Shown: positions 1,466 through 60,820, numbered from the stretch's first letter. The stretch is DNA of 64,000 bases from an uncultured Candidatus Saccharibacteria bacterium (GCA_964630185.1 CAZVTQ010000003.1:109175-173174); one strand, 5' to 3'. The notes: a model not told the origin generated them from the sequence alone. Translations and numbers: made by a program.

Positions 1466-4078
1466 CTAAGATGCTTTTTCTGAAGTTTCCTTACTCGCCT
1501 CTACCTTCGCATTTTCAGTAGGTGCATTTTTTACAACATTTGTGTCTGTAGGTTTTTTCTTGTTACGTGAACGGCTTCGTGTTCGTTTTTTGTTCGGGTC
1601 TTGATGCTGTTGCTGGTTATTATTTTGCATAGTACCTGTGACCCAATTTTTAGCAGGCTGAGGGACTGGAGCAGTCTCCTTCCCTAGTAGTTCTTGAATC
1701 TCTTCCTCAACTTCAGCTCGAGCACGACTATATGCGCGTCGAGAAAGTTCAACTATCTGAGGTGAGTTATCTGCTTGGATAGGAGGGAGGCTAAGGGTCT
1801 TGGCACTGAAAGCAGGGGCCTTCTCTCCCCTGATGACCATGTTGATCACGAAGTTACGATTAGCCATCTGTAGCAAGTCTTCAGGCTGGAATTGAGGCTC
1901 AAAAGGTTTCGCAAGAATCGGTGCATCGTCCGCAGACACACGGAAGGATATCATTGTTCCAACGTTACCGAAAACAGCGTCTCGTACAGTATCTTCCATC
2001 TGAGAGACGTACTGGTTGGCTATAGTGAGGTTGAGGCCGTATTTACGGGCTTCAGAGAGGATTGTTGCGAAACTATCGGTAGCGAAGTTCTGAAACTCGT
2101 CAACGTATAGGTAGAACGGTCGACGGTCTTCGATATTTGGTATATCACTACGGCTCATGGCTGCAAGCTGTATTTTGGTAACAAGGAAGGCGCCGAGGAT
2201 GCCAGCGTTGTCTTCACCGATCAAACCTTTAGAAAGGTTCACGATCAATATCTTCCCTTCGTCCATCATGGTTCGGATGTCGAATGTACTTTTCGGCTGG
2301 CCGATGATATTTCGGATAATTGGGTTGGCTGTAAATGCACCAACCTTGTTTAGCACAGGGGCTACAGCTTCAGATGCAAACTTGTCGTTCCAGCTTGCAA
2401 ACTCAACGTTCCAGAAGTTTAGCACCACGGTATCTTCACATTTATCGAGAACTTTTTTACGGAATTTCTTATCTGTTAGCATGCGCGTAATGTCGAGCAT
2501 GGTGCTGTTTGGATAATCTAAGAGTGCTAATATGGTATAACGCAAAATATACTCAAGTCGCGGCCCCCAACTGTCACCAAACATACGTTTCAAAACTCCA
2601 ATGATTTCTGAGCTGGTATTGCTCTTCATTGAAGGGTCGTGGACTTCCATAGGGTTAAATCCTAATGGGAATGCAGTATCTGCTGGGTTGAAATACACTA
2701 CGTCCTTCATACGGTTTGCAGGAATGAACCGGAGGTTATTAACTGCAAAGTCTCCATGTGGGTCGATGATAGCGTACCCTTGGTCGTGATAGACATCACT
2801 TAGGGCAAACAACTCAAGTAGTCCCGACTTACCCGCTCCTGTTTGGCCAATGATGTATGCGTGCCTTCCCCTATCAGATCGCAGCAGTCCAAATTGATAA
2901 TTTATGCCGCGGAAGTTAGTCACACCAAAAGCACTAATTTGCTCGTCAGCTACATCGTTGCCGGTGATGACCGGTAGCTTGGCTGGCGGTTCAGCAGTTT
3001 TTGTACTAGCCCATACAATATTAGGTGTCTCCACGTTCGTGTGAGGCAAGTGGAATACACTAGCAATCTCTTCAATGTTTAATATAAAGCCGTTGTCGGT
3101 AAAGTACCGCGCTGCATATGCTGCTACATCTTCACGTCTGAAGCTGCTTTTGCTCATACGAAAACCATTGAGGTTTGTACTATTAAACTGTTTAAAAGTA
3201 CCTACCAAGCCCTGAATACGCTGCCTAGCAATGGGCTGTGAGTGACCAAGGTATGCTACGCGGATTTTTACTTGGTAACCAAGCTTGACTGATTTTTTCT
3301 CGACTTCTGCTATACGTGTTTTTTCACGCTCACTTATTTCACGAGTTGCCGATGCCCCACCACCATTTTCTGGTGGTTTCCATAGCAGGGCGAGCATTTG
3401 GCCAATATAGCCCATTGCTCCCCCACTACTAAGGCCCGCGACCGATCCTTTCTTCACCCCTTCAACGTAACGACTTGATCGTTGATGCCAATCGTCGGCT
3501 ATAGGACGAGCAATAACTTGAATCCATAATTCTTCATCTTCATCTTCAAGCTTGGCAAGTGTTGCGGTAATACCTGCAAGAGGGTCAACTTCGAAGTTTG
3601 TGAAGGTTTTTATAGGCAGTACTTCGTTGTCTACCAAAGTTAGTTCCGCAGTATTAACGACACTGTGGGTGATGTGTCGTCGAGTGTAATCTTCTGGCGC
3701 TTCGTGTATTTGCACTGTTGGATACTGTGCGTAGATCTGCCCTTCAACGAAGTTCCGTAGATGCCGCGGTGCCCATACATAAAAACGAATCATCTTGTTT
3801 ATAGATGCCATTTCAAAACTGATGTGTTCTTGAACTCCCCCACTCTGTTTGAGTTCGATTTTATCGCGCAAAATACCATGCAAACTGGCAAACAATTGCT
3901 CGGCTGCGAGCTCTTGCTTATCGTTTGTACGTGGAATTTCAAGCACTAAAAGAACGGGGTCAACAGCTTGGATGCTCTCGGCCTTTTGGTTATTGCGCCA
4001 TGCTAAATACAGCAGTACCCCTACGATTGGTAGCCATACGTACCATTGCAATAAAAATTCAAAAATTGAGCCCAACAT
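1466..4078 (-). CDS. VirD4/TraD-like type IV secretion coupling-protein-family ATPase (N-terminal TM segment, P-loop)
   Basis: 870 aa. N-terminal TM helix; Walker A IIGQTGAGKSG; Walker B-like FYLYVDEFQNF; basic, low-complexity C-terminal tail. Confidence 0.6.
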   Translation of the reverse strand: MLGSIFEFLLQWYVWLPIVGVLLYLAWRNNQKAESIQAVDPVLLVLEIPRTNDKQELAAEQLFASLHGILRDKIELKQSGGVQEHISFEMASINKMIRFYVWAPRHLRNFVEGQIYAQYPTVQIHEAPEDYTRRHITHSVVNTAELTLVDNEVLPIKTFTNFEVDPLAGITATLAKLEDEDEELWIQVIARPIADDWHQRSSRYVEGVKKGSVAGLSSGGAMGYIGQMLALLWKPPENGGGASATREISEREKTRIAEVEKKSVKLGYQVKIRVAYLGHSQPIARQRIQGLVGTFKQFNSTNLNGFRMSKSSFRREDVAAYAARYFTDNGFILNIEEIASVFHLPHTNVETPNIVWASTKTAEPPAKLPVITGNDVADEQISAFGVTNFRGINYQFGLLRSDRGRHAYIIGQTGAGKSGLLELFALSDVYHDQGYAIIDPHGDFAVNNLRFIPANRMKDVVYFNPADTAFPLGFNPMEVHDPSMKSNTSSEIIGVLKRMFGDSWGPRLEYILRYTILALLDYPNSTMLDITRMLTDKKFRKKVLDKCEDTVVLNFWNVEFASWNDKFASEAVAPVLNKVGAFTANPIIRNIIGQPKSTFDIRTMMDEGKILIVNLSKGLIGEDNAGILGAFLVTKIQLAAMSRSDIPNIEDRRPFYLYVDEFQNFATDSFATILSEARKYGLNLTIANQYVSQMEDTVRDAVFGNVGTMISFRVSADDAPILAKPFEPQFQPEDLLQMANRNFVINMVIRGEKAPAFSAKTLSLPPIQADNSPQIVELSRRAYSRARAEVEEEIQELLGKETAPVPQPAKNWVTGTMQNNNQQQHQDPNKKRTRSRSRNKKKPTDTNVVKNAPTENAKVEASKETSEKAS

Positions 4079-56679: not shown

Positions 56680-57678
56680 TTACTTTTTAGTGCTACCAGC
56701 GTTGACTTCGTAGCTAGTATTTGTGCTTTCAAAGAAGTTTACGAGCTCGAGAGTGTCATTAGCTGCGGCCATCCATTTAGCTGGGTTGCTTACTTTGTAG
56801 TGTGCACCAAAGCCAAGTTCTTCGAGGCGGCGATCAGCAAGATATTTGACGTATTGGTTGATGTAGTCAGCATTGAGGCCTAAAATACCGTTTGGCAAAA
56901 GATCTTTGTTGTACTGCTCTTCCATCTCAACGCCGTCGAGGATCATTTGCTTGATCTCGGCTGCAAACTCTTCAGTTTGAAGGTCTGGGTTTTCGTCTAG
57001 AACTGTCAAAATAAGGTTTATACCAAACTTGAGGTGAAGACTTTCGTCACGAACTACCCAGTCAATGAGACTACCGAAGTTACGGAGTAGGTTTCGTTGA
57101 CGGAAGCTCAGTGCAACCATGAAGCCACTGTAGAACCAGAGGCCCTCAAGGATGATGTTGTAGGCTACGAGGTTTCGTACGAAATCCTTCTTACCTTCAG
57201 TGGTTGTGATGTCGATTTGTTCCTCAGTCATACGCTTAATGTATTTGACCTCGAACTCTTCTTTTGCAGCCATAGATGGAATGTTGATGTGTGCGTCGTA
57301 AGAACCTTCGCGGTCAACTGGGAATGTCTCAAGAACGTATTCAAAAGACATACAGTGGTTGGCTTCTTCCCACATTTGTTTTGCAAGATACATGTGTGCT
57401 TCTGGCGCATTGATGTAGGGGTATACACCGAAGGCTAGAGCTTTGTTTACTAGTAACTCGTTTGGGTTGAAATAACTCATTAGGAATGTGACTGCGTGTT
57501 TTTCTTCATCACTCATTTTGCGCCAATCGGCGACGTCTTGTCCTAGTTGGATTTCGTTTGGAAACCAAGTATTTGCAACTGCTTGTTCGTATAGGTCATA
57601 TGCCCATTGGTAACGAACTGGCTTGAGTCGCAGTCCATCTTGGATACCTGTTCCTAGTATGCCTTTTGTTTTTGTCAT
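56680..57678 (-). CDS. nrdB: Class I ribonucleotide reductase beta subunit with class Ic-like residues
   Basis: Ferritin-like di-metal motifs: NPNE(L), WEEANH, ILEGLWFYSGF, RDESLH. The residue at His+4 of the first ExxH is Phe (HCMSF), where the radical Tyr normally sits. Confidence 0.9.
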   Translation of the reverse strand: MTKTKGILGTGIQDGLRLKPVRYQWAYDLYEQAVANTWFPNEIQLGQDVADWRKMSDEEKHAVTFLMSYFNPNELLVNKALAFGVYPYINAPEAHMYLAKQMWEEANHCMSFEYVLETFPVDREGSYDAHINIPSMAAKEEFEVKYIKRMTEEQIDITTTEGKKDFVRNLVAYNIILEGLWFYSGFMVALSFRQRNLLRNFGSLIDWVVRDESLHLKFGINLILTVLDENPDLQTEEFAAEIKQMILDGVEMEEQYNKDLLPNGILGLNADYINQYVKYLADRRLEELGFGAHYKVSNPAKWMAAANDTLELVNFFESTNTSYEVNAGSTKK

Positions 57679-57684
57679 AGCAAT

Positions 57685-57864
57685 CTACTCGCAACCGTCG
57701 CAGATAAGACCTTCTTGTGGGTCAACCAATGCGTCCATGTTGATATTTTTTGTTGAAAACGTTTGAGAACCTTGCTTTTGCGCTTCGGCCATCGCTTCTT
57801 GGATGATCTTCATTCGTAGTTCGATTTCTTCTTGTGTTTCTTGTTGTGTATTGTTTGTGCTCAT
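57685..57864 (-). CDS. Small ORF (59 aa) between nrdA and nrdB, ending in CDGCE
   Basis: Not in the ORF track (below 60 aa). ATG at 57864 with GGGGG 9 nt upstream. Translation: MSTNNTQQETQEEIELRMKIIQEAMAEAQKQGSQTFSTKNINMDALVDPQEGLICDGCE. Stop TAG at 57685-57687. Confidence 0.5.
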   Translation of the reverse strand: MSTNNTQQETQEEIELRMKIIQEAMAEAQKQGSQTFSTKNINMDALVDPQEGLICDGCE

Positions 57865-57899
57865 AACTTTTACCCCCGTTACTTTCGCTTTTTATTATT

Positions 57900-60302
57900 T
57901 TATCTTGCTCTGGAGCCAAAGCCAAATCCTGACCCACTTGAGCTAGATTTAGCAATTGCTTCTGACTTATTAACTTTTGTTGTACTCTGCTCGGCCTGAT
58001 GTCGTGGTTTGACGTGTAGGTAGTAAGTAGTCTTGAGACCCTTTTTCCAGGCGCTCGAATAAATACCTACCATGTCGTCAATATCACGTGTCTCTAGATA
58101 CATGTTGCGTGAAATAGCTTGGTCAACCCATTTCTGAGCTCGCCCTGCTACTTCTATAAATGCGTCTGGAGACAACTGGAAACTGGTTTTGTATACATCT
58201 TTAATGTGTTGTGGAACAGCATCGATCTTCGTGAGGTCACCCTGATGTGCGAGGACGTCGTCTTTTACCTCAGTCCAAAGATCAAGTGCTTTCAGGTCGT
58301 TGACCAAGTTGACGTTTACTTCTAGGAACTTACCGTTAAGTGTTGATCGTGAGAAGATTTGTGAAAACTGCGGATCAAGACCTGGAGTTGTGCCTGCAAC
58401 GTGTGCGATGTTTGCTGTCGGTGCAATAGCCATAAGAGTTGCATTTCGCATACCTTTTTTGACTTTTTTGCGTAGTTTTTCCCAGTCGAGACGGGTTGTG
58501 CGGTTGATATCAATACCTACGCCACGGTCGATGCTAGCAAGCTCCACTGTGTCGAGTGGGATTAGTCCCTTGCTCCAGCCAGAGCCTTTGAACATTGGAT
58601 ATGCTCCACGCTCTTTGGCAAGCTCTGCACTTTCGTCGATTGCTTGGTAGCTGATGAACTCTACAAGTTGGTCAATCAAGTCGTATGCTTCTTCAGACTC
58701 GTATGAGTAACCAAGCTTCTCGATAACATCGGTGAATCCCATAACGCCTAGTCCAATAGCACGGTTTTGTTTGTTGGAGTGCATCGCTTCTTTAACTGGT
58801 GTGTTCGTGATGTCCACAAGGTTATCGAGTTGGCGAACAGCCGAACGAGTACTACGCTCAAGTCGCTTCCAGTCGAAGTCTCTTTTGTCGAGCAGTAAGT
58901 GTGCTGAAAGGTTCATGCTGACTAAGTTGCAAACTGCAGTGTTGTCTTTGTCTTGCGGTAATGTGATTTCGGTACATAGGTTTGAAAGATGGATTGTACC
59001 AGTGTTGTTGTTGAGTGCGCGTACGTTGATAGTGTCTTTCCAAGTAAGCCACGGGTGACTTGTTGCTTGGAGTACTATAAGAATTTGACGGAATTGTTCG
59101 CGAGCTTTGATTTTGTCGAATGTACGCATTTCACCTGCTTCAGCTAGTGCAATGTACTCGGCATAGCGTTTAGAAAAGTCGCTACCGTAGAGTTCGCACA
59201 AGTCTGGAGTATCAGCTGGGTCAAATAAGTACCAATCTTCGTCGTTGTCGACTCGTTTCATGAATTCATCTGACATCCATACGGCAGTGTTGGCGGTTCG
59301 CACACGGAGGTACGGGTCACCGGAGTTTTGCTTTAGGTCGAGGAATTGTGGGAAGTTTAGGTGCCAGTTTTCCATGTAGAAAGCCAAGGCGCCGGCTTTT
59401 TTGCCTTTTCGGCTCACAGCACGAAGAGCTGCATCGACAACGTTCATAAATGGAATTGGTCCAGTAGAAACAGTATTTGTACTCTTCACAGGTGAACCTT
59501 CGGCACGAAGCTTGTTCATAGAAAGGCCGATTCCACCGGTACCCTTAGATATCCACATAACGTCGCTGACGGTCTTTGCGATAGAATCCATGTCATCTTG
59601 CGTCTCCATGACAAAACAGTTGCTGAGCTGCGGGAAAGCACCTCCTGCGTTAACTCTTGTTGAGCCACCAGGCACGTAGTCGAAGTTACTCATGCGGTCG
59701 TAGAATTCCAAAGCTGCTGCTGTAGGGTTTTTCTCGTTAAAGCTAAGACCCATAGCAATACGCATCATAGTGTACTGTGGTGTTTCAATCGGTTCGCCGT
59801 CTTGTTTGCGCAAGGCATAACGGTTTTTACTGGTGATAACACCAAGATATTTCATAAGATTGTCTCGGCTTGGGTCGAGTGCTGCAGCTAGTTTTTTGAG
59901 GTCAAATAGCTTGCTGTCGCCCATTCGTTTGTCTAGTAGTTTGTCTTTAACACCTTGACGTATGTAAGGCGCAAAGTTTTTCTGATGAAGTGCTACAAGT
60001 TCTTCATCACTTTCATAGTCACCAAGGACATTCTTGTAAATTGTTTTTAGCAGCAATCGTGCAGCTATGATGTCAAAGTCTGGGTCGTCTTTGACGTTTT
60101 GCAAGGCTGCGTGAATGACTGCTTCATCTAATTGCGTTGTTGTAATGCCGTCGAACAGAGTCAAACTTACCTCTGTAGCAACTTGAATTACTTTTGATAT
60201 TTGATCATCAAGGCCGCGCGTTGCTCTCTCTAGCGCACGGTTGATTTTGTCGGCATTGTAGGCTTGTTTGCTGCCGTCAATTTTTGTGACTTGAATGTCC
60301 AC
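57900..60302 (-). CDS. nrdA: Class I ribonucleotide reductase alpha subunit with an N-terminal ATP-cone
   Basis: ATP-cone (VTKIDGSKQAYNADKINRALE). Catalytic regions SNLCTEI and TTYYL. Start set at the GTG at 60302 (TAGGAGGGTCACCAAAA upstream). The C-terminus is Ser/Gly-rich and has no Cys pair. Confidence 0.9.
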   Translation of the reverse strand: MDIQVTKIDGSKQAYNADKINRALERATRGLDDQISKVIQVATEVSLTLFDGITTTQLDEAVIHAALQNVKDDPDFDIIAARLLLKTIYKNVLGDYESDEELVALHQKNFAPYIRQGVKDKLLDKRMGDSKLFDLKKLAAALDPSRDNLMKYLGVITSKNRYALRKQDGEPIETPQYTMMRIAMGLSFNEKNPTAAALEFYDRMSNFDYVPGGSTRVNAGGAFPQLSNCFVMETQDDMDSIAKTVSDVMWISKGTGGIGLSMNKLRAEGSPVKSTNTVSTGPIPFMNVVDAALRAVSRKGKKAGALAFYMENWHLNFPQFLDLKQNSGDPYLRVRTANTAVWMSDEFMKRVDNDEDWYLFDPADTPDLCELYGSDFSKRYAEYIALAEAGEMRTFDKIKAREQFRQILIVLQATSHPWLTWKDTINVRALNNNTGTIHLSNLCTEITLPQDKDNTAVCNLVSMNLSAHLLLDKRDFDWKRLERSTRSAVRQLDNLVDITNTPVKEAMHSNKQNRAIGLGVMGFTDVIEKLGYSYESEEAYDLIDQLVEFISYQAIDESAELAKERGAYPMFKGSGWSKGLIPLDTVELASIDRGVGIDINRTTRLDWEKLRKKVKKGMRNATLMAIAPTANIAHVAGTTPGLDPQFSQIFSRSTLNGKFLEVNVNLVNDLKALDLWTEVKDDVLAHQGDLTKIDAVPQHIKDVYKTSFQLSPDAFIEVAGRAQKWVDQAISRNMYLETRDIDDMVGIYSSAWKKGLKTTYYLHVKPRHQAEQSTTKVNKSEAIAKSSSSGSGFGFGSRAR

Positions 60303-60471
60303 TTTTGGTGACCCTCCTAATTTTTTTGTATTATGAGCACTTATAAGCAACGAGGAGCCACACCACTCCTTTATGCTCGGTGATCGATGGAAGACATCGT
60401 TCTACACCCCCTGGTGTCTTCGGGCGAGACATAGCTATTTTGGATATACTATATCTAGCGCTTATGTTCCA

Positions 60472-60501
60472 TAGTAATACCCTATATATGCTATTGTCAA
60501 C
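60472..60501 (-). promoter_or_regulatory. Candidate nrdA promoter TTGACA-N18-TACTAT with an overlapping AT palindrome
   Basis: The -35 is at 60501..60496 and the -10 at 60477..60472. The spacer contains CATATATAGGG. A second palindrome GATATACTATATC lies about 35 nt downstream. The leader is about 170 nt. Confidence 0.35.
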
Positions 60502-60553: not shown

Positions 60554-60820
60554 CTAACTGTTTTTAGCCAGTGCGGCATCTATTTTTGGCCGGTCAAAAC
60601 CCACTACAATTTCGCCGTTAATGCTGCTGGTAGGAACACCTTGAAAATTACCGCGACCACCTATAGTTTCCATTAGTTCGTTATACGCTGTCTCGTCTTT
60701 TTCTATGTCTTTTGTGACAAAGGTTACTTTTTTGTGTTCTAAGTATTGCTCTAAGCTATGGCAAAAAGCACACCAGCTTGTACTGTATATAGTTACTTGA
60801 GGCGTTGTACTACTACTCAT
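60554..60820 (-). CDS. Glutaredoxin-fold redoxin (NrdH/Grx-like)
   Basis: VTIYSTSWCAFCHSL (CxxC), GVPTSSINGEIVVGF. Immediately upstream of the RNR genes. Confidence 0.8.
   Translation of the reverse strand: MSSSTTPQVTIYSTSWCAFCHSLEQYLEHKKVTFVTKDIEKDETAYNELMETIGGRGNFQGVPTSSINGEIVVGFDRPKIDAALAKNS

Follow-up and report, generated by a model that had tools for sequence, protein, structure and literature searches.

A short gene between nrdA and nrdB of a Saccharibacterium probably encodes the redox tail of a class I ribonucleotide reductase as a separate polypeptide

In class I ribonucleotide reductases (RNRs), two cysteines of the active site are oxidised at every turnover and are re-reduced by a second cysteine pair at the C-terminus of the alpha subunit (NrdA), which in turn is reduced by thioredoxin, glutaredoxin, or NrdH (PMC4078304, PMC5704485, PMC9669993). 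The class I consensus is CXXC, present in 1737 out of 2022 class I sequences (PMC9669993, PMC9531940), and both reviews and large-scale analyses treat the cysteine pair as integral to the alpha polypeptide (PMC9669993, PMC9531940, PMC4390871). A split organization is described for the class II RNR of Pseudomonas aeruginosa. Crona et al. (2015; PMC4520616) present NrdJa/NrdJb as a split RNR that is unique for a free-living organism. In their work, reductive dithiol exchange was shown to be mediated by NrdJb, and neither of the two parts was dispensable in vivo. NrdJb has folded IscU-like and Zn-finger domains (PMC9669993).

The locus analysed in the present work lies in a stretch of 64,000 nucleotides (hereafter, the window) from an uncultured Candidatus Saccharibacteria bacterium (GCA_964630185.1, CAZVTQ010000003.1:109175-173174). 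To our knowledge, the class II NrdJa/NrdJb is the only split RNR that has been characterised; in the literature searched, RNR-wide analyses included, no description of a split class I RNR tail was found. In NrdJa/NrdJb, a catalytic polypeptide lacks the C-terminal cysteine region and an adjacent second gene supplies it, as at our locus; however, that enzyme is of class II and B12 (AdoCbl)-dependent, whereas the NrdA of the window belongs to class I, and the sequences are unrelated. Moreover, NrdJb is much larger and has another fold, the small protein studied here having 59 residues, one helix, and two cysteines only. By analogy, NrdJa/NrdJb may be taken as the closest counterpart of the system and as a precedent for a trans-acting tail. 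We consider it quite probable that, in the class I RNR of the window, the redox tail of the alpha subunit is a polypeptide of its own, the product of the 59-aa ORF, and that it originated by fission of nrdA within the long disordered linker by which the barrel and the CxxC end are connected in the nearest fused relatives. The features of the locus, in the coordinates of the window, are the following:

60554-60820, minus strand: glutaredoxin/NrdH-like gene (redoxin), 88 aa, with a CAFC motif (Pfam PF00462, E 6.6e-12).
60471-60500, minus strand: candidate promoter-like site, TTGACA-18-TACTAT, 5' of nrdA (consensus scan, 10/12 matches).
57900-60350, minus strand: nrdA, class I RNR alpha subunit (Pfam PF02867/PF00317/PF03477; NCBIfam NF005101).
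57873-57877, minus strand: Shine-Dalgarno-like GGGGG of the small ORF, 8 nt 5' of its ATG (sequence reading).
57685-57864, minus strand: small ORF of 59 aa, probable detached RNR tail protein (ORF reading and conservation).
56680-57678, minus strand: nrdB, class Ic-like RNR beta subunit (Pfam PF00268).

The order on the minus strand is, therefore, redoxin, nrdA, small ORF, and nrdB. The nrdA stop codon is a TAA at 57902-57900 and is followed, after a spacer of exactly 35 nt, by the ATG of the small ORF at 57864; the latter ends with a TAG, and nrdB starts 6 nt 3' of this stop. The first-pass annotation of this DNA had described a free-standing 59-aa ORF between nrdA and nrdB, 35 nt downstream of the former and in another frame, with its own G-rich RBS and ending in CDGCE; coordinates and sequence agree with that description in all its parts. 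Some 200 nt separate the redoxin gene from nrdA, which is downstream of it, and the redoxin scored 78.8 bits against the YruB-family model TIGR02196 of NCBIfam, below the cut-off of 88.55; from its position, the redoxin would be a candidate reductant of the small tail protein. A promoter and terminator scan of the region gave site counts not above chance, and no terminator-like sites were found by the scan between nrdA, the small ORF, and nrdB.

The NrdA of the window has the ATP-cone, all-alpha, and barrel domains (Pfam) and matches NCBIfam NF005101 with 1376 bits, above the cut-off, covering positions 2-786 of the 822 of the profile; none of 14 control genomes scored above the cut-off for this model. 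It also matches the class I model TIGR02506 and is paired with NrdB. The catalytic motifs are kept, namely the cysteines of SNCFV, NLCTE, and AVCNL and the YY dyad of TTYYLH. Nevertheless, the last cysteine of the protein is the active-site one in ...TAVCNLV..., about 330 residues from the end; no cysteine follows AVCNL, the terminal stretch, with a conserved GFGFG motif, is ...SGSGFGFGSRAR, and the C-terminus reads ...KSSSSGSGFGFGSRAR. The earlier statement that this NrdA is devoid of a C-terminal cysteine pair thus holds for the last ~330 residues. The same is true of its relatives: the 120 closest homologues, mostly of 793-807 aa apart from a few shorter fragments, have 0-1 cysteines each in their last 60 residues, and a cysteine pair in none. 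As for the other end of the protein, the nrdA ORF as listed has 816 aa from the first TTG, i.e., about 16 codons more than the closest homologues (797-803 aa), and translation probably begins in reality at the GTG of V17 (VDIQVTK...), about 16 codons past that TTG (60303-60350, minus strand).

The host genome is that of a Saccharibacterium of about 1.04 Mb, about 99% complete. The only match to PF02867 in it is this nrdA, and no class III RNR was found in this ~99% complete genome. Since this is the only RNR catalytic subunit of the genome, the enzyme is presumably functional and needs a route of re-reduction; on the same grounds, we infer for the small protein a trans-acting redox function, as the dithiol shuttle of this NrdA. 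In those Saccharibacteria that possess only this RNR, the small protein is probably essential.

The best PDB match of NrdB was 1SYY/4D8F (E 1e-71), which we take to be the class Ic R2 (R2c) of Chlamydia trachomatis. The Phe of HCMSF (in WEEANHCMSF) aligns with the Phe in HTHTF of 1SYY, that is, at the position of the radical Tyr; moreover, the first metal ligand is a Glu, and an NPNELLV motif is present. Given this Phe and this Glu, the RNR of the window looks class Ic-like by sequence. These two features are those of the class Ic (Mn/Fe R2c) enzymes, whose heterodinuclear Mn(IV)/Fe(III) cofactor may be present here as well.

The full translation of the small ORF is MSTNNTQQETQEEIELRMKIIQEAMAEAQKQGSQTFSTKNINMDALVDPQEGLICDGCE, and it ends with ...DPQEGLICDGCE (i.e., ...ICDGCE), a CxxC followed by one residue; in its relatives, the end is more typically PLDPADLTMCEGCQ. 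Its frame differs from that of nrdA and, as had been noticed in the first-pass annotation, contains a TAA TAA just upstream, 10-11 codons before the ATG; no ATG, GTG, or TTG occurs between these stops and the ATG. The columns I21, A24, Q29, D48, P49, C55, and C58 are invariant. Probing Pfam and NCBIfam with the small ORF did not retrieve any family (E<=0.1); for the small ORF together with the Microbacteriaceae peptides discussed below, the only match was to DUF5816, sub-threshold (E 0.04), which was regarded as noise and discarded. The AF2 model (single chain, 26-sequence alignment) has a mean pLDDT of 63, indicating a moderate confidence. It contains one N-terminal amphipathic helix, from residue 11 to 32 (pLDDT ~75), followed by the cysteine-bearing end, residues 33-59, without secondary structure (pLDDT ~55-60). 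A single helix with a disordered cysteine-bearing end, as predicted by this model, is what one would expect of a flexible shuttle, and the helix might serve for docking.

The distribution of the small ORF in other Saccharibacteria was then considered. A six-frame search retrieved it in seven of the eight other genomes of the genus (61-97% identity; one of the seven copies is cut by a contig end), and also in five other genera of the family; the same arrangement was found in families f34 and f59 of the order. In every relative examined, the small ORF adjoins nrdA/nrdB and, in the genus and family relatives, it sits between a tail-less nrdA and nrdB, with the exception of one genome (G088). Here, in a genus of the same family, the order is nrdA, nrdB, and small ORF (locus L037, contig G088:C1, at 1492-3648, 480-1559, and ~176-394, respectively, all on the minus strand), with nrdB overlapping the nrdA end. 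Depending on the genome, the frame of the small ORF relative to nrdA is 0, +1, or -1, the in-frame cases having one to four stops in between, and every Saccharibacterial copy opens with its own ATG.

When 201 genomes evenly sampled from the order were screened, eight (G000, plus seven others) proved to have a close homologue of this NrdA (E<=1e-52), and good matches to the small ORF profile (E<=3e-5) were found in exactly the same eight genomes and in no other of the 201; the small ORF is, therefore, conserved in all the sampled genomes having the same NrdA. The distribution of this class I (Ic-like) NrdA within the order, eight out of 201 sampled genomes, is patchy. The full small ORF gave dN/dS values of 0.018/0.726 against G003 and of 0.26/2.2 against G002, i.e., a ratio of about 0.03-0.12. 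When the profile was run on 5.8 billion proteins, clustered at 90% identity, about 3150 clusters matched, of about 57 aa each and unnamed or 'hypothetical', the named ones being all Saccharibacteria. All 123 inspected members of the family have exactly two cysteines, in a CxxC followed by one final residue (usually Q). The family was not found either in viral contigs (profile) or in 50,697 phage records (tblastn). According to these data, the small ORF is a real, conserved gene, which evolves under purifying selection and shows a strict linkage to NrdAs of this type, and we infer that it is translated in vivo. The co-occurrence in the same 8 of 201 genomes and the dN/dS refute a coincidence, which had been one of the three explanations initially put forward.

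One Saccharibacterial genome departs from this picture: in G213 (L022/L038/L041, G213:C1 437119-437919), nrdA is distributed over several frames and the small ORF has only 25 aa. This genome is listed as 50% complete, and the region is either a decaying operon or the result of a poor assembly.

To find NrdA proteins with a tail, a wider search was necessary, the closest-homologue search being filled by Saccharibacterial NrdAs of ~800 aa; the fused outgroups were obtained from 1.84 billion representatives (50%-representative set), of which the best 150 relatives of NrdA were examined. Within these 150, 127 end in CxxC plus one or two residues, mostly CE[AS]CQ. The nearest fused relatives are Paceibacteria-type Patescibacteria and Actinobacteria outside Microbacteriaceae, with tails ...CPIDPQERLQCESCQ. 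In the former, found at 60-66% identity, the tail is fused in 74 out of 78 resolved loci. With a Propionibacteriales query, 72 loci were resolved: 56 were fused (examples being Aeromicrobium, Nocardioides, Jiangella, Cellulomonas, and Demequina), 14 split, and 2 neither, and 13 of the 14 split loci are Microbacteriaceae-type micro-ORFs. The fused architecture consists of the barrel, YYLH...NK..., a GFG motif, a long low-complexity linker, and the end ...(C)P[IV]DP.E..QC[DE]SCQ.

The small ORF and the fused tails share the motif P-x-D-P-x5-C-x-x-C-Q/E, with a spacing that is equal residue for residue, at the extreme C-terminus. An HMM built on the Saccharibacterial small ORFs alone was run on 160 foreign loci, translated in six frames into 27,313 segments, and 49 of 55 matches fell on the extreme C-terminus of fused NrdAs; individually, the matches to fused NrdAs are weak (best E 0.005), and the case rests on their positional consistency. 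Judging from the shared motif and from its position, the C-terminus of the small ORF is homologous to the fused NrdA tails. The flexible, disordered context and the presumed shuttling between redoxin and active site would be common to both as well. The small protein differs from the covalent tail in that a gene of its own, with its own start codon, encodes it, and in that Saccharibacteria add an N-terminal helix to it; furthermore, many fused relatives have a CP.DP motif, the first cysteine of which is missing from the small protein. The alignment with the NrdA proteins of relatives, suggested in the first-pass annotation, thus places the tail as separate in Saccharibacteria and Microbacteriaceae and as fused in Paceibacteria and other Actinobacteria. 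The first of its three explanations, a genuinely split tail, is the one that the data support, the gene being separate and conserved and its end homologous to the fused tails of the nearest relatives.

Two loci belonging to otherwise fused clades, one of Paceibacterota (L169, DALYDD010000005.1) and one of an uncultured member of Actinomycetota (L224, CAVVQG010000013.1), have the usual linker and tail of the fused type, but with a change of frame inside the linker. Either the assemblies contain an indel at this point or a fission is caught here in its nascent state. Such isolated cases, together with the fragmented nrdA of G213, resemble the window at first sight, and they are what could be quoted in favour of an indel introduced by sequencing or assembly, of pseudogenisation of nrdA, or of an ORF due to chance in the window itself. 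We assign to this explanation a negligible probability, because the arrangement of the window recurs in more than 100 independent assemblies, isolate genomes included, a conservation that renders an indel artefact untenable; moreover, the ORF has its own translation signals and a dN/dS of 0.03-0.12, and the nrdA concerned belongs to the sole RNR of the genome.

A second group of organisms harbors a similar organization. One tail-less NrdA representative was 69% identical to the NrdA of the window, a member of its cluster being named Naasia; using this Naasia-type representative as a query, we retrieved 80 Microbacteriaceae loci, Leifsonia, Clavibacter, Rathayibacter, Microcella, and Cryobacterium among them. 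In 78 of the 79 loci in which the nrdA end was resolved, NrdA terminates in ...RRGFGG... without cysteines and is followed by a separate micro-ORF of 21-47 aa, placed between nrdA and nrdB and ending in ...Y.VPVDPMDDLQCESCQ. The start of the micro-ORF overlaps or abuts the nrdA stop (ATGA, GTGA, TAATG), and its frame relative to nrdA is -1 in 67, 0 in 6, and +1 in 5 of the 78 loci. Its last 15 codons have a mean pN/pS of 0.19. With the Saccharibacterial HMM, the micro-ORFs were detected in 78 of the 79 loci, at E<1e-3 in 46 cases; nrdB is of the class Ic-like type (WEEANHCMSF, having Phe in place of the Tyr) in 79 of the 80 loci. The micro-ORFs thus have in common with the window the tail-less NrdA and the class Ic-like NrdB, but their products are shorter and without the helix. 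The sole exception out of 79 is a Homoserinimonas sp. (L090, JAMLGP010000001.1), in which the 400 nt downstream of the Cys-less nrdA yielded no tail micro-ORF; its tail ORF may lie elsewhere in the genome.

The frames bear on a further possibility, i.e., that programmed frameshifting or stop-codon read-through joins the tail to NrdA, so that the alpha subunit would be a conventional one. A -1 frame with overlap of the nrdA stop in 67 of 78 Microbacteriaceae loci is what one might look for in the first case, and the few genomes having the small ORF in the frame of nrdA in the second. However, such a -1 bias is the expected outcome of the ATGA, GTGA, and TAATG start-stop overlaps, no conserved slippery heptamer was seen, and each of the frames 0, +1, and -1 is represented in Saccharibacteria as well as in Microbacteriaceae, the Saccharibacterial in-frame cases being interrupted by one to four stops. 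Furthermore, an ATG, GTG, or TTG of its own opens every copy, usually after a Shine-Dalgarno-like sequence; in the window, the 35-nt spacer and the TAA TAA in the small ORF frame stand between the two coding regions, and in G088 the whole of nrdB does. Recoding is, according to these data, very improbable, and the programmed or erroneous frameshift proposed at the outset is refuted by the three frames, the intervening stops, the own ATG with its Shine-Dalgarno sequence, and the gene order of G088.

We then asked how many times a separately encoded tail has originated. The NrdA tree (FastTree, LG+gamma; core region, delimited by the HPWLTWKD motif and the YY dyad) groups the split Microbacteriaceae with the other, fused Actinobacteria (0.995), the split Saccharibacteria being joined to this pair (0.965) and the fused Paceibacteria being sister to the whole. 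This topology implies that fission occurred twice and was persistent, and it indicates that two independent fissions of nrdA would be the simplest account of the data. The different architectures of the two types of small ORF agree with this, since the Saccharibacterial one codes for 55-59 aa with a helix and, being separated from nrdA by a spacer, is preceded by a Shine-Dalgarno sequence of its own, in place of the short overlapping peptides of Microbacteriaceae. A single fission followed by HGT had been considered on the basis of a first tree without fused Actinobacteria, in which Saccharibacteria and Microbacteriaceae were sisters (0.999); it was dropped when, on adding 22 fused actinobacterial NrdAs, Microbacteriaceae moved beside them (0.995). 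The position of Saccharibacteria as sister to the actinobacterial clade hints at a possible exchange of the operon with the phylum to which the known hosts of these epibionts belong.

In principle, a protein linked to an RNR might also serve it otherwise than as a shuttle: the small protein could take part in the metal handling or assembly of the Mn/Fe NrdB, or act as a regulator, NrdA being reduced by the redoxin. NrdB is class Ic-like throughout the split systems compared (79 of the 80 Microbacteriaceae loci, plus the window), CxxC motifs can bind metals, and the redoxin gene upstream of nrdA could serve NrdA directly. On the other hand, two cysteines alone rarely form a metal site, the C-terminal motif is homologous, in both sequence and position, to the covalent tails of the nearest NrdAs, and the small ORF is present exactly and only where NrdA has lost its cysteine pair. 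We therefore hold a role of this kind to be unlikely.

If the small ORF does encode the detached tail of NrdA, the following cycle can be depicted. After turnover, the C-terminal CxxC dithiol of the small protein would reduce the disulfide of the NrdA active site; the oxidised small protein would then be re-reduced by thioredoxin or a glutaredoxin-type protein, the product of the upstream NrdH/Grx-like gene being the obvious candidate. In Saccharibacteria, the amphipathic helix would probably dock the small protein on NrdA in place of the covalent tether. Three points can be raised against such a shuttle: a free peptide forfeits the high local concentration given by tethering; the helix is without counterpart in the 21-47-aa Microbacteriaceae peptides, so that the docking mode is not conserved; and the upstream redoxin might reduce the active site of NrdA directly. 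The broader proposal, that a third, dissociable micro-subunit, i.e., a dithiol shuttle of 21-59 aa, evolved independently in the class I RNRs of Saccharimonadia and of Microbacteriaceae, is advanced with some reserve, and we rate its chances as slightly short of even.

Like the redoxins NrdH, glutaredoxin, and thioredoxin, which are often encoded in nrd operons, the small protein is a small CxxC dithiol protein that would bring electrons to RNR. Unlike them, it lacks the thioredoxin fold (one helix in the AF2 model, no match in Pfam or NCBIfam), and its CxxC is at the extreme C-terminus, whereas that of redoxins is at a helix N-cap inside the fold. The RNR electron-delivery chain is likewise modular in Facklamia ignava, whose NrdB has an N-terminal glutaredoxin fusion (PMC6187632); that case is, however, the opposite one, in that the redox component is fused on and is a redoxin rather than an alpha tail (PMC6187632).

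A class I tail that is naturally detached, and that would have become so twice, suggests that no covalent tether is necessary for the shuttle to work, and it offers a system for asking about the path of the tail to the active site, about the redoxin that recharges it, and about the control of dNTP supply. If the tail were a true third micro-subunit, the recharging of RNR would be bimolecular and potentially regulatable, with the abundance or the redox state of the tail gating dNTP synthesis, and the peptides would be among the smallest dedicated redox-carrier proteins known.

These peptides also pose a problem of annotation, being unannotated, 'hypothetical', or wrongly called 'subunit beta' in many genomes, and surveys would score the corresponding NrdAs as devoid of a reductant interface. 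The peptides of 24-25 aa from Leifsonia and Clavibacter (clusters P0407, P0408, and P0410), for instance, bear in NCBI the erroneous name 'ribonucleotide-diphosphate reductase subunit beta', whereas 'Ribonucleotide reductase, alpha 2 subunit' is the name used in one entry from Clavibacter; the peptides have thus already been noticed by annotators.

Finally, a Gly-Phe-Gly motif is conserved at the end of NrdA. In Saccharibacteria, it has the form K.GFGFAK (57903-57935 in the window, minus strand), while the NrdA of Microbacteriaceae ends with one or two copies of (R/K)(R/K)GFG; the motif is also present in the fused relatives, about 20-30 residues past the YY dyad. Both fissions cut just downstream of this motif, which may anchor the base of the tail.
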